NCBI GenBank assembly: GCA_039000165.1
Contig: JAWBTW010000014.1
Span: 1-17,944, forward strand
Length of the DNA stretch: 17,944 nt
Source of the DNA: Candidatus Aenigmatarchaeota archaeon
GTDB lineage: Archaea > Aenigmatarchaeota > Aenigmatarchaeia > CG10238-14 > SCSR01
Direction: 5' to 3'
Below are positions 6,001 to 9,000 of the stretch, one piece after another; position 1 is the stretch's first letter, and every line of letters begins with the position of its first letter. The position numbers were made by a program.

Positions 6001-9000
6001 TCGCTTCGCATTTTACCTTGCGAAATTAAAGCTTGAGTATCTAAAACTATTCTTACCTGATAATCTGTTAAACCATTAGAGTTTGCAGTATTGTCTATTA
6101 CTAAAGCTTTCCTGTATAAAAAATTTGGGTCAAAGCTTAAACAATGACTTCCGTTCCATGTGCCGTTGCAAAATTGAAAAACAAAACCTGATAAACCAGA
6201 ATCGTCAAACCATTTAAGACTAAACAAGGTAGGTTTTCCCGCTACTGTTGAGTTTGTTGAATTACAACAATATTGAGGATAAGACTCGGGAGAAGCATAA
6301 GACTCGATAAAGAAAAATAAGATAAGAGTTAAAGTAACGAGCAGCATCAATACTTTCATGAATATTAATTGTTGTTTTATTTGATTATTATTTTAAGCTC
6401 AAAATATCCAAGAATACAAACTTCTTTGCTTTTCTGTTGCATACTCAAAAAATATTTCTGAGAAATCGTAGCTTGATTTTAAGTAATTTTTATTTTGTGA
6501 GTACTCCTTAAGCAAACTTTCCAGTTTTACCTTTAAATCATTTAATTCCTTGTATCTAAAAAATTTTTTTATAGCAGGGTTTCCTATTATTGTAACGCTT
6601 ACATTAGCATCTTCTTTTGCTAAAGCTATTACGTCAATATCGTATTCGTCACAAATTCTTAGTTCTGCACCAACACCAAAAGAAGGGTTTGTTAGTTCTG
6701 CTATAACCAAATCACAACTTTTAACCTTTTCTAAATCAAAGTTGTAAAGGTTCTTTACTATTTCTTCTGCTTCTAGAAAAATTTTTTTCATCTCTTTTCT
6801 TGTGTCTCTGTGAGGAAGCCAAACCTCAAAACCTAAAGATTCACAAACTTCTGCAATAATTTCATAAATTTTTTGATTTTCTGGTTTACTTTGGTCAAGT
6901 CTTCCTGCAACAAAAACTTTAACTCTTTCCATAAAAAAGTGATTCGAGACTAAAGTTTAAATTTATATTTCTTCTTTCTTTAGAAGCGCCGGGGCTGGGA
7001 TTTGAACCCAGAAGGGGCAAAGCCCCAGTAGGTTTCTCAGAATTCAAGTATCATCATTATTCAGATACCTCAGGCTTCTTCATTCACTCGAGCCTACCGC
7101 GTTACCTTGTTCCGCCACCCCGGCTCTAATTAAAATTACTTTGCTTAACTTAAAAATTGTATTCTACTAATTCTCTTAAATCTTTTTCTCCAAAGTAAAC
7201 CAAATGACTTTTACAATTGCAATCAGAAGAGCCAAATCTTTTCACTAAAATTTTTGCTCCAGGCAAGCTTAAAACTATTTTGTTTAGCCTGCACTCAATT
7301 CTTTTTTTGCTTTGAAACCCAACCAAATGAACAATTTTAGCACTTTTTCTAGCTAGCAAGTAATCTATATGCCAAAACTTTTTCTTTTTCTTCCTTTTAT
7401 GTCTTTCCACTCTAGCTTCCAGATTTTTAAGAGCAGAACCAGAATAAACATAAAAACCTTTTTTGAAATCAAAACTTCCAAGCTTCCCAACTTTAATTCT
7501 TTCATCTTTTTCAAGTTTAATGAAAAGCAAATAAGCGCCTTTCATAAAAGGAATTATTTATTTAACACTTAAAACTATTTATGAAAGTTTTCCAAGAAGA
7601 GTTTGAGGTTAAAAGTTCAAGAAAAAGGGAAGTAATTGACATTACAGAAGAAATTGAAAGAATAGTTGAAAAAAGCAAAATAAAAAATGGTTTATGTCTA
7701 ATTTTTCTTCCTCATGCAACTTCTGCCATAATTTTTGAAGAAAATGAAGGTGGTTTAATAGAAGATATAGAAAAATTTTTAGAAAAAAATTTCCCGAGAG
7801 GAGCAGGCTATAAGCATGATTTAATAGATGATAATGCTGATGCTCATTTGGCTAGCGGTTTTATAGGACAATCGAGAATTTATCCTATAGAAAACAGAAG
7901 AATAGTAAGAGGAACTTGGCAGCATGCTCTTTTAATTGAATTAGATGGACCAAGAAGAAGAAGCGTGCATATAACAATAATTGGAGATTAATTTTTGAAC
8001 AAATTAGCAATCAAATCAGCTAGAGAAATCTTGCTGAACTTTGTTTCTACGCTATCAGTAGAAATTATTTCTTTTATTCCGGCTTTTAAAATATGTTTTT
8101 CGCTTTTTCTGTCTATTAAAGCATGAGTAACTACAGCATAAATCTCATCTATGCAATTTCTCAATTCTTTAGCTACTGGTATTAAAGTGCTTCCTCCTGA
8201 AGCTAAATCATCAACTATAACAGCACGTTTTTCTCTTTTAATATTCTTTAGATTTTTCAAAGAAGTTTCGTCGAAAAACACTCTTCCATTTTTGTCTCTT
8301 CTTTTCTCTAAATTAACATAACTAGAATCTAAAACTTTTGCTATAGTTATTGCTTTTCTTTCAGCATTTTTGTCTGGTGCTACTATTAAAGAATTGCTTA
8401 AACCTCTTTTCTTCAAATAGTTTGCTATAACATTGCTTGGGTCTAAACTACCTTTGTAGAAGGAATACTTTTGTAAAACAATTTCAGAATGAGGGTCTAC
8501 AGTATACAACTCTTTTATTCCAGAACTAGATAAAATTTCTAGAGCAACTTCCGCGTTCCTGCTTTCATTTTTTAGTGGTTTATCCTGCCTTTGGAAAGCA
8601 AGATAAGGGATAACAGCTTTAATACAAGAAACCTCATTATTTAACAAAAGATTTGTTACAAAGCAAGTACGAACTATTGAACCAAATTGGTCTGGATAAA
8701 AGCTTTGAATGTAAACTATTTCTTCGTTCCTTAAATTTTTGTTCAATACATATTTCCCTTCACCATCTTTAAAAGGAATGTAAGGAATGGTAACACATTC
8801 TATTCCTAACTTTTGAGCAACTTTTGGGGCCAACTTTCTTGAAGTTAAAGTAACTACTTTCATCAATTTTTCTTATAAAAATTAATTTTAAATATTCTAA
8901 ACTAAAATTGAAACTTGTGGAATTAAGCCTTTTGAGAAAAGATTTGATAGAGCCAAGAGAATATCAGCTTAAAATAGCTGAAACTGCAAGCAGAAGAAAT

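Follow-up and report, generated by a model that had tools for sequence, protein, structure and literature searches.

A box C/D guide RNA-like intron in the tRNA-Ser(CGA) gene of an Aenigmatarchaeota archaeon and its predicted target in large-subunit rRNA

The sole tRNA-Ser(CGA) gene in the 783-kb genome of this hot-spring Aenigmatarchaeota archaeon lies at positions 6987 to 7124 (minus strand) of the 17,944-nt contig analyzed here (the window) and is interrupted by a 53-nt intron with the layout of an archaeal box C/D guide RNA. We consider it likely, with a probability of roughly 0.7, that this intron is a working guide RNA for which the tRNA gene serves as the vehicle of transcription and processing. 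The box C/D reading, which the initial annotation had proposed, is supported by an architecture that is unique in the genome, by conservation across the order, by genes for the proteins that would partner it and for the enzymes of splicing, and by box-by-box alignments to Rfam families. The conserved guide of the intron is complementary to a site in large-subunit (LSU) rRNA.

RESULTS

The tRNA-Ser(CGA) gene and its splice motif

The gene was recovered as a cloverleaf by ARAGORN with introns allowed (aragorn -i) and by the Rfam tRNA model; CCA is not encoded. The 5' exon (7087 to 7124, minus strand) comprises the acceptor strand, the D arm, the 5' strand of the anticodon stem, and loop nucleotides C32 to G37, and the 3' exon (6987 to 7033, minus strand) comprises A38, the 3' strand of the anticodon stem, a long variable arm, the T arm, the acceptor strand, and G73. 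The gene had been placed initially at 6985 to 7120, so its identity stands while its limits are revised, with the 5' end 4 nt further out. Further ARAGORN calls of "Ser(cga)/(tga)" in the genome are other tRNAs that were miscalled. The gene had also been described, together with a tRNA-Ser(UGA) gene on another contig, as one that standard finders miss. This is true at default settings, with which ARAGORN without introns returned 0 genes and Rfam at gathering scores 0 matches in the window, but not once introns are allowed, as aragorn -i recovers both genes, nor once filters are relaxed, as the Rfam tRNA model then scores the CGA and UGA genes at 42.0 and 42.3 bits (cutoff, 29). The G+C content of the contig is 32%.

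The intron (7034 to 7086, minus strand), supported by the ARAGORN call, its boxes, and subthreshold Rfam C/D alignments, is located at site 37/38; its 53 nt and the 59 nt of the UGA intron agree with the 52 to 59 nt at 37/38 annotated earlier. The CGA pre-tRNA contains the canonical splice arrangement of two bulges and a 4-bp helix with the cut at 37/38. Read from the sequence, the central helix is formed by C32 U33 C34 G35 (7089 to 7092, minus strand) and UGAG (7036 to 7039) as C32-G, U33-A, C34-G, and G35.U; the two 3-nt bulges that hold the cut sites are A36 G37 U and A A A38, the outer splice helix is GAAU/AUUC, and the anticodon stem is GUAGG/CCUAC. The minimum free energy (MFE) fold matches this manual reading in part, in that it retains the anticodon stem along with the 3-nt 3' bulge and three pairs of the central helix, C32-G, U33-A, and C34-G. 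The bulge-helix-bulge reading sets the excision point after G37; ARAGORN, owing to ambiguous A/G letters at the intron ends, puts the cut 1 to 2 nt earlier. The overlap between box D and the splicing helix that had been reported is seen in the pairing of 7036 to 7039 with C32 to G35. Pairing with U33 to G35 in the splice helix would impose the UGA of box D in any case, so this UGA does not count as independent evidence.

Box architecture and protein partners

All four boxes that had been reported for the CGA intron (AUGAAGA, CUGA, AUGAUGA, and CUGA) were located between 7037 and 7083 on the minus strand, in the archaeal order and spacing of C, 12 nt, D', AUA, C', 10 nt, and D. Box C (AUGAAGA, 7077 to 7083) has A instead of U at position 5, a deviation that was also recorded earlier. 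It is followed by the 12-nt D' guide AGCCUGAGGUAU (7065 to 7076), which has 9 bp of complementarity to LSU rRNA CUACCUCGGGG; by box D' (CUGA, 7061 to 7064); and by box C' (AUGAUGA, 7051 to 7057), which together with D' and the AUA linker makes up a K-loop-type motif. The 10-nt D spacer UACUUGAAUU (7041 to 7050) forms the outer splice helix with its 3' end, and the UGA of box D (CUGA, 7037 to 7040), by manual reading, doubles as part of the central 4-bp splice helix. With a four-box pattern that relaxes box C, the CGA intron was the only match in the 783-kb genome, and 10 shuffles gave 0 matches; a looser pattern had 3 matches, comprising the two tRNA-Ser introns and one site inside a 632-amino-acid open reading frame, compared with 0 to 1 in shuffles.

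As noted previously, no Rfam C/D family matches the CGA intron at its gathering score. Because these families are defined also by their guides, an RNA with a new guide would be expected to fall short of them. Below threshold, 14 archaeal C/D families align full-length and box by box to 7034 to 7087 (best E value, 0.005), with the highest scores from sR12 (23.2 bits; cutoff, 38) and snoPyro_CD (23.2 bits; cutoff, 45). The genes for all three protein partners listed in the initial annotation were found, each above Pfam cutoffs: L7Ae (contig C6, 37340 to 37618), Nop5 (C6, 23422 to 24063), and fibrillarin (C6, 24109 to 24750). The genome also encodes the splicing enzymes EndA and RtcB.

Parts of the window are present in 16 public sequencing runs, mostly hot-spring metagenomes. 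Four runs were compared, all as contigs, and these contain no joint that removes the CGA intron; contigs of this kind are uninformative on splicing or expression. One RNA-library contig (depth, 4) spans 6997 to 7263 with the intron retained and may be of DNA origin. A single joint that skips 77 letters was rejected as evidence of splicing, as it brings in 36 other letters and comes from another tRNA gene.

Conservation across the order

Copies of the RNA were sought in 118 genomes of the order with the family motif GRGGUANCWGA-N2-8-UGANGA. One match each was found in 34 genomes, and a reversed-pattern control gave 5 matches in 4 genomes. Twenty-eight of the 34 matches are situated in anticodon-loop introns of tRNA-Ser genes, 1 is free-standing, and 5 are unrelated, so that the CGA-type intron RNA is present in 29/118 genomes from at least 5 families. 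The observation that the boxes are kept while the D guide varies, made originally across three genera, thereby extends to these 29 genomes. Of 26 copies that could be parsed, 25 have CUGA as box D', 23 have UGAUGA as box C', and 23 have a D' spacer of 12 nt; the D spacer is 12 nt in 14 copies and 10 nt in this genus. The terminal boxes are more varied, with UGAAGA (13 copies), UGAUAA (6), UGAUGA (5), and UGAGGA (2) for box C and CAGA (11), CUGA (7), AAGA (5), CGGA (2), and UAGA (1) for box D, and the GA dinucleotides are kept across these variants. Within the genus, substitutions are located in the D spacer and in the distal part of the D' guide, where U.G pairs are exchanged for C-G pairs and vice versa at G residues of the target. 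The free-standing copy belongs to another genome of this genus (G005). There, the guide RNA is found by itself within a perfect splice hairpin, located 53 nt upstream of a tRNA-Ser(CGA) gene without this intron. Outside the order, the CGA-type pattern occurs in 22/253 genomes versus 10 control matches, and none of the 4 matches inspected among these 22 was in a tRNA gene.

A predicted LSU rRNA target for the D' guide

The D' guide of this genome forms 9 bp with LSU rRNA in such a way that the fifth nucleotide upstream of box D' faces C2734, equivalent to about position 2441 in Escherichia coli. The initial annotation had regarded complementarities of about 9 bp as unconvincing, and shuffling confirms that they are not significant in one genome: 350/1000 shuffled D' guides equal the match on the two rRNAs, and for the four guides of this genome, 350, 424, 222, and 724 of 1000 shuffles do as well as the best rRNA match. 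The target therefore rests on comparison. Guide and LSU sequences were both available for 15 genomes, 13 of which have 9 to 11 contiguous base pairs through the fifth position with LSU CUACC*UCGGGG. The exceptions are G030, with only 4 bp at this site (a guide G opposite an LSU A), and G025, with an internal mismatch (6+3 bp). When eight guides of the family were summed over both rRNAs of this genome, the best site was LSU 2730 to 2741, and 1/300 column permutations reached its score. A 7-nt guide core is invariant across families, with a constant fifth-position register at this one rRNA site. Moreover, in one genus (four genomes), the LSU has CUACCCC and the guide GGGGUAG, a U-to-C change matched by an A-to-G change, although this compensatory change is a single evolutionary event and guides from related genomes cannot be counted as independent. 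The earlier statement that there is no convincing target thus holds for this genome alone but is largely overcome by the comparison, which points to one LSU site in 13/15 genomes.

The D guide

In relatives, the second guide ACGCUCUUGAU forms 10 to 11 bp with LSU AUCAAGGGCGC in 3/3 genomes tested, and in a permutation test with four guides, 0/300 permutations reached its score. Owing to a 1-nt insertion, the D guide of this genome retains only a 5-bp core at that site, and it was rejected as a guide for it and judged to be decayed. The D spacer UACUUGAAUU is not conserved within the genus, and no target for it has support. The D guide of this genus has probably decayed, with only the splice helix and the box being supplied by this part of the intron.

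The spacer could instead have been re-aimed at the T-loop, producing Cm56 in some tRNAs in place of an absent Trm56. In Pyrobaculum, Cm56 is made with a C/D guide instead of Trm56. Trm56 (PF01994) was detected in 0/6 genomes of the genus and 10/41 relatives, and UACUUGAAUU has 9 bp of complementarity to the T-loops of tRNA-Tyr, tRNA-Leu(UAG), and tRNA-Lys(UUU), with C56 at the fifth position. Such a role is nevertheless improbable, given that most T-loops, including that of the host, form just 7 bp with two G.U pairs, that G004 has an A at D-guide position 5 that is unable to pair with C56, and that the D spacers of G002 and G012 are unrelated to UACUUGAAUU. The spacer is only 10 nt long, with a 3' half that is dictated by the splice helix, and 424/1000 shuffled spacers equal its rRNA score.

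A second putative guide RNA in tRNA-Ser(UGA) and 16S rRNA introns

The tRNA-Ser(UGA) gene, annotated initially at contig C1, 43455 to 43592, is likewise present, with corrected limits of 43454 to 43599. Its 59-nt intron carries a guide RNA that differs from the CGA one, with predicted targets at A1408 and the 3' tail of 16S rRNA. Among 48 copies of the UGA-type guide, 20 are in anticodon-loop introns of tRNA-Ser(UGA) and 28 are in introns of 16S rRNA, where they occupy at least 4 insertion sites within the last ~60 nt and lie between the two predicted targets. MFE folds of the 16S introns (3 sequences) contained long flanking helices only. Short modules with a single K-loop are also found in introns of the tRNAs for Trp, Leu (CAA and UAA), Met, and Cys, as well as in the 5' leader of tRNA-Ser(UGA), and are predicted to be aimed at nucleotide 34 or 39 of the tRNA to which they belong. 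The tRNA-Ser(GGA) introns of G026 and G034 gave no firm target on the rRNAs of the present genome.

DISCUSSION

Proposed mechanism and alternative explanations

Starting from what can be observed directly (the gene, its intron, the boxes, their conservation, the complementarity, and the encoded proteins), we infer a course of splicing, circularization, RNP assembly, and methylation. The pre-tRNA would fold into the canonical bulge-helix-bulge motif and be cleaved by EndA at 37/38, after which RtcB would ligate the exons and probably circularize the intron, as is known for other archaeal tRNA introns. Excision would free the GA of box D, which in the precursor would be held in the splice helix, and the C/D and D'/C' motifs could then serve as assembly sites for L7Ae, Nop5, and fibrillarin. 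The D' guide (ending in CUGAGGUAU directly before CUGA) would pair with the LSU strand GCUACCUCGGGG, which leads into the central loop of the peptidyl-transferase region, and fibrillarin would be placed on the C at LSU position 2734 for a predicted 2'-O-methylation. Given this pairing, the guide RNA is proposed to act in trans on rRNA and not on its host tRNA.

The intron could instead have a purely structural role, in which its kink-turn and K-loop recruit L7Ae for folding of the precursor and its guides direct no methylation. The degeneracy of the terminal boxes across the family (box D is CAGA, AAGA, CGGA, or UAGA in 19/26 copies), the unconserved D spacer, the burial of the box D GA in the precursor splice helix, the occurrence of similar K-loop-like motifs in other tRNA introns and processing sites of this genome, and the nonsignificant guide complementarity in a single genome are all consistent with such a role. 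It leaves unexplained, however, the invariant 7-nt core, the constant fifth-position register, the compensating change, and the free-standing gene in G005, and in the short K-loop modules of other introns, host position 34 falls exactly at the fifth position in 5/7 cases. We therefore consider a structural role alone unlikely. Far less probable is that the intron guides methylation of the anticodon loop or stem of its own tRNA-Ser, as in tRNA-Trp. The layout is the same, with the intron at 37/38 and box D adjoining the 3' splice site, and other introns of this genome bear guides for position 34 or 39 of the host. However, neither guide reached a score of 7 in the right register against the host tRNA-Ser(CGA) in a genome-wide scan, and a target in the host tRNA was rejected on this basis; the sole exon pairing consists of 5 to 6 bp at guide positions 7 to 12, with no tRNA nucleotide opposite position 5. 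Box motifs are short and the genome is AT-rich, and an ordinary A/U-rich intron might resemble a C/D RNA by chance, yet the lack of four-box matches in 10 shuffled genomes, the single copy at the same place in each of 29 related genomes, and the box-for-box alignment to 14 Rfam C/D families leave chance resemblance with a negligible probability.

Relationship to known guide RNAs

Box C/D guides in tRNA introns are textbook knowledge for tRNA-Trp, whose intron acts on the tRNA that contains it, and the reviews consulted regard this case as unique or uncommon. The pre-tRNA-Trp intron of Haloferax volcanii, like Pyrococcus sR50, is a C/D sRNA that directs the Cm34 and Um39 modifications of its host tRNA (PMC4090602, PMC7994747) and was termed "a unique example" in 2014 (PMC4090602). 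The CGA intron resembles the euryarchaeal tRNA-Trp case, to the extent that the latter is described in these sources, in being a canonical 37/38 bulge-helix-bulge intron with the makeup of a dual-box C/D RNA whose boxes C and D lie close to its ends, and in its predicted release by the tRNA splicing machinery. It differs in that its host is tRNA-Ser, that no complementarity to this host was found, and that its conserved guide fits LSU rRNA. The analogy with tRNA-Trp that had been drawn thus extends to the layout only, since the predicted target is rRNA instead of the host tRNA.

In Nanoarchaeum equitans, the elongator tRNA-Met has a 66-nt intron with a putative C/D sRNA (Randau 2012, PMC3491384). 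Judging from the portions of that account available to us, both cases involve a DPANN archaeon, a tRNA intron with a C/D-like RNA whose C box deviates, and an association of C/D RNAs with tRNA genes; the N. equitans RNA is stable. The host tRNA is different, and the N. equitans account, as available, has no named target, multigenome family, or change of host gene. Compared with free-standing archaeal C/D sRNAs (Pyrococcus sR, snoPyro_CD; PMC4644070), as far as these are described there, the CGA intron has a similar length (about 50 to 55 nt), the same succession of C, 12 nt, D', short loop, C', spacer, and D, an internal K-loop, and a predicted target in a functional rRNA center. It lacks a promoter of its own and a terminal stem, its ends presumably being made by intron excision, and in relation to the Rfam C/D families, its boxes align but its guides do not, leaving it below every gathering score.

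The UGA-type guide has points of contact with the literature as well. According to the accessible text of Dennis et al. (2015, PMC4644070), 16S A1408 is a predicted C/D target in Sulfolobus acidocaldarius and N. equitans. Known archaeal rRNA introns with bulge-helix-bulge motifs contain homing-endonuclease open reading frames or nothing, as described in PMC4496867 and PMC3608112, and the available portion of PMC4496867, on the 16S introns of Thermoproteales, makes no mention of an sRNA, methylation, or a guide. The 16S introns of relatives in the present order, by comparison, hold the UGA-type guide RNA. Whether noncoding RNAs arise from rRNA introns is treated as an open question in the sections seen of a review (PMC3608112), and how guide RNAs move in archaea is a question raised for N. 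equitans (PMC3491384, as available). The partially accessible literature that was searched contained no precedent for a tRNA-Ser intron with a conserved guide toward the catalytic region of the ribosome, for a guide located in some genomes in tRNA introns and in others in 16S introns sited between its own predicted targets, or for a free-standing guide copy that would still be excised by the splicing enzyme.

Implications

It is possible, though we advance this only tentatively, that the splice-motif introns of this order are carriers of its methylation-guide repertoire and that the UGA-type family moves between tRNA and 16S introns. If so, guide-target pairing may steer where introns settle, or introns may be kept for the delivery of guides, and the extreme intron load of these genomes would have a functional basis. 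Guide RNAs such as that of the CGA intron would be natural substrates of compact size, in some cases with just one K-loop, for probing the minimal requirements of C/D RNPs; they would show how guide RNAs move in archaea and would help explain the retention of introns in intron-riddled DPANN genomes.

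A tRNA-Ser(CGA) intron with box C/D architecture

The genome under study (G000; 783 kb, 25 contigs, 91.6% complete, with the window as contig C14) contains numerous introns in its tRNA genes, and the stretch is present in hot-spring metagenome runs. Single-copy tRNA-Ser genes were found for the anticodons GGA, GCU, CGA, and UGA; further ARAGORN "Ser" calls proved to be mis-read Leu, Met, and other genes. As the CGA gene is the sole one of its kind in this set, removal of its intron is required for UCG decoding, and the splicing proteins EndA and RtcB are encoded. The gene (window positions 6987 to 7124, minus strand) folds into a class II cloverleaf with a long variable arm. 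By sequence reading, a 53-nt intron (7034 to 7086, minus strand) directly follows G37, and the splice motif on that strand is a canonical bulge-helix-bulge, consisting of the anticodon stem GUAGG/CCUAC, a 3-nt bulge (A A|A38), a 4-bp helix (C32-G, U33-A, C34-G, G35.U), a second 3-nt bulge (A36 G37|U), and the outer helix GAAU/AUUC. Of the four central pairs, the minimum free energy fold of the precursor retains three, along with the cloverleaf and the 3' bulge. ARAGORN places the cut at 36/37, unlike the manual reading, because of repeated A/G letters.

The intron reads, in order, C (AUGAAGA), 12 nt, D' (CUGA), AUA, C' (AUGAUGA), 10 nt, and D (CUGA), which bears out the box order and spacing proposed in the initial annotation. 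A four-box search pattern has its sole G000 match here and none in 10 shuffled genomes; a looser pattern has three matches, comprising both the CGA and UGA tRNA-Ser introns and one site within a 632-amino-acid open reading frame. With relaxed filters, the Rfam tRNA model scores 42 bits on the gene (cutoff, 29), and 14 archaeal Rfam C/D families align full length to 7034 to 7087 via the four boxes, with no family reaching its gathering threshold (best score, 23.2 bits; E value, 0.005). The tRNA-Ser(UGA) gene behaves similarly (42.3 bits with the tRNA model; eight C/D families). The statement that standard finders miss both genes holds for default ARAGORN and for Rfam at gathering thresholds but not for "aragorn -i," which recovers both. 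Fibrillarin, Nop5, and L7Ae, the proteins of the C/D RNP, are encoded in G000 as had been noted. The C/D arrangement of the intron is a real feature.

Distribution of the CGA-type RNA

Intron-bearing full-length homologs of tRNA-Ser(CGA) reach well outside the genus in BLAST searches of 41 relatives. A search pattern combining the conserved end of the D' guide (the spacer preceding the D' box) with the D' and C' boxes gave one match in each of 34 genomes, out of 118 in the order, against 5 matches in 4 genomes for the reversed control. Among the 34 matches, 28 are anticodon-loop introns of tRNA-Ser (27 with a CGA and 1 with a UGA anticodon) and one is free-standing; five were discarded as unrelated sequences. 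Outside the order the pattern was near its control (22 of 253 genomes versus 10 control matches), and none of the four such matches inspected was a tRNA intron. In the 26 copies that could be parsed (those of G044, G030, and G005 were missed by the parser though alike in appearance), variation is nearly absent from the D' and C' boxes but present in the terminal C and D boxes, and 23 have a D' spacer of 12 nt. The earlier observation that boxes are kept across genera while the D guide varies is confirmed, now over 29 genomes in at least 5 families.

The free-standing copy lies in G005, a member of the same genus (sequence L013, 1501 to 1570, minus strand). It keeps the D' guide intact and sits within a 5-bp hairpin (CCGAG...CUCGG) that has a perfect bulge-helix-bulge motif; a tRNA-Ser(CGA) gene whose own intron is 12 nt and noncanonical follows 53 nt downstream. 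The presence of the same RNA in its own splice hairpin outside the tRNA argues that it is retained for its own sake.

Predicted targets in LSU rRNA

For G000 alone, the match of the D' guide to the rRNAs is not significant (350 of 1,000 shuffled guides were equally good), and the initial caution that only short complementarities and no convincing target had been seen was justified at that level. The guide core GAGGUAU is, across families, almost invariant. Pairing was therefore summed over eight family guides against both G000 rRNAs, leaving out G004 and G012 (guides identical to that of G001) and G028 and G030 (G at position 6). The top site was LSU 2730 to 2741 (CUACCUCGGGGA), and its score was reached by 1 of 300 column permutations. 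When each guide was compared with its own LSU, 9 to 11 contiguous base pairs running through the fifth position, the predicted 2'-O-methylation target, were found in 13 of 15 genomes; G025 has 6 and 3 bp flanking a mismatch, and G030, with 4 bp only, is an uncompensated counterexample. Four genomes of one genus combine LSU CUACCCC with guide GGGGUAG, compensating changes that represent a single event.

When the sequence is aligned to the E. coli 23S gene with GGGGAUAAC as the anchor, taken as positions 2444 to 2452, the target C falls at about E. coli position 2441, immediately 5' of the peptidyl-transferase central loop. A mini-intron of ~33 nt is located exactly within the target (GCUAC|..|CUCGGGG) in the LSU genes of G015 (L055), G006 (L063), and G032 (L060), so that the guide there fits only the spliced rRNA. 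LSU introns were also seen near the target in G012, G019, and G037, with further introns a few nucleotides downstream; together with the mini-introns, these mark this stretch of domain V as an intron hot spot. The G000 LSU gene (C8:296-3556) has a ~40-nt insertion following CCCACAG, and the peptidyl-transferase region of the order (about 2740 to 2860 in G000) is unusually divergent (UUGGUGCGUCGCUGUCGGCUC versus UUGGCACCUCGAUGUCGGCUC in E. coli).

Many relatives share a D guide, ACGCUCUUGAU(U/G), that forms 10 to 11 bp with LSU AUCA*AGGGCGC in G015, G006, and G025, ~250 nt upstream of the D' target; the site exists in G000 too. The observed score was reached by 0 of 300 permutations, for four guides chosen for the shared motif. 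An alternative D guide of one family, UACGUCGAUGUU, forms 9 bp with LSU CACAUCGACG in G037. The D spacer of the window genus is 10 nt, species variable, and has just a 5-bp core left to the old LSU site, and we consider this guide decayed. A weaker reading is that the spacer guides Cm56 formation in T-loops in place of Trm56: in G000, three T-loops pair with it over 9 bp such that C56 faces the fifth position, and none of six genomes of the genus gave a match to Trm56 (PF01994), although one species variant of the spacer is unable to pair with C56. Trm56 was found in 10 of 41 relatives, including 5 of 5 in one family. Decay of the D guide is the reading that we prefer.

A sister RNA in tRNA and 16S rRNA introns

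The tRNA-Ser(UGA) gene (C1:43454-43599) carries a different C/D-like intron, with the boxes AUGAUAA (C), CUGA (D'), AUGAUGA (C'), and UUGA (D). The terminal D box is degenerate, as first annotated, and a G-to-A change at C-box position 6 accompanies the C-to-U change at D-box position 1. Its D' guide, AAUGGCUUGACU, forms 9 Watson-Crick pairs with 16S CGUCA*AGCCA, placing its fifth position opposite A1408 (landmark numbering); another family has 11 bp, with a guide change matched by a 16S change as judged by eye. The permutation test for this site is weak (48 of 300; two guides, G000 rRNA). In PMC4644070, A1408 is already predicted to be targeted by C/D RNAs of S. acidocaldarius and N. equitans. 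The D spacer includes GGAGGUGA, which is complementary to the 3' end of 16S rRNA (8 bp in G000; up to 10 to 12 bp in other families; 5 of 300 permutations) and is present in 40 of 41 plausible copies chosen by D' guide and boxes alone. As the box after this spacer is degenerate and one genus has its register offset by one, the evidence favors pairing with the 3' tail over any particular methylated nucleotide.

This RNA occurs in 48 copies in 47 of the 118 genomes, with no control matches. Twenty copies lie within tRNA-Ser(UGA) introns (three, misnamed by ARAGORN, were checked), and 28 lie within 16S rRNA gene introns of 83 to 152 nt, for example, in L142 (G024), L138 (G061), L140 (G075), and L141 (G016). 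The latter are found at four sites within the final ~60 nt of the gene, after own positions of about 1501, 1509, 1522/1523, and 1530 (the G038 copy was positioned by eye), and these sites fall between the two predicted targets of the RNA.

Short K-loop modules and other C/D-like motifs

A module, GACUCAAGGU-CUGA-AUAA-AGAUGA (C1:43600-43630, minus strand), immediately precedes tRNA-Ser(UGA) in G000. Its 10-nt guide pairs over 10 to 11 bp with the anticodon loop and the intron's first bases in the precursor that carries it, and U34 faces the fifth guide position; with the relatives included, the pairing spans 10 to 12 bp. The motif is present in 27 of the 118 genomes (no control matches), and in the listed cases it mostly lies 3 to 22 nt before a tRNA-Ser(UGA) gene whose 37/38 intron may be long or short. 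Where the distal end of the guide changes, the intron's first bases change with it (one pair occurs as A-U, G-C, and U-A). The module resembles a guide for Um34 that is carried in the leader and has a single K-loop.

Similar short modules (guide, YUGA/AUGA, a 4- to 5-nt loop, and AGAUGA) are contained in 31- to 46-nt introns of G000. Those of tRNA-Trp (C4:46763-46874), tRNA-Leu(UAA) (C6:33224-33346), tRNA-Met(CAU) (C8:10369-10476), and tRNA-Leu(CAA) (C9:26832-26949) place their host's nucleotide 34 exactly opposite the fifth guide position; PMC7994747 describes position 34 of these tRNAs as a C/D target in Pyrococcus. In tRNA-Cys (C13:14410-14514), a manual count places C39 there. The stricter form of the motif matched G000 20 times, 5 in tRNA introns, and 10 shuffles gave 6 to 16 total matches. 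The cis pairings are partly local hairpins, and the modules may act in trans, by analogy with what has been shown for tRNA-Trp.

A third C/D-like intron type, of 54 to 58 nt, was seen in tRNA-Ser(GGA) of G026 (L016) and G034 (L023), with guides ..GCGCCUCU and GAAGGAGUACC that have no firm target on the G000 rRNAs. K-loop-like motifs in G000 include UCUGAUGAAAGAUGA (C8:3618-3632, minus strand), which directly precedes the LSU 5' end, and UCUGAUGAAAAGAUGA (C8:7111-7126, minus strand), within the 16S gene at own position about 756 to 771. L7Ae may bind these motifs, either where rRNA is processed or within a small insertion in the 16S rRNA.

Comparison with known intron-encoded guides

The CGA-type intron has the same layout as the tRNA-Trp intron guide and a putative sRNA in the tRNA-Met intron of N. 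equitans, as described in PMC4090602 and PMC7994747 and in PMC3491384, respectively. It departs from both in its host, which is tRNA-Ser; in its target, predicted in rRNA and in trans; in the existence of a free-standing splice-hairpin copy; and in having a sister guide that alternates between tRNA and 16S rRNA introns. No prior description of any of these four features was found in the literature searched, as far as its accessible text extends (subscription journals and supplements lay outside its scope). Judged from sequence, the CGA-type intron very probably functions as a C/D guide RNA, and we assign a probability of roughly 0.7 to the full mechanism proposed for it.
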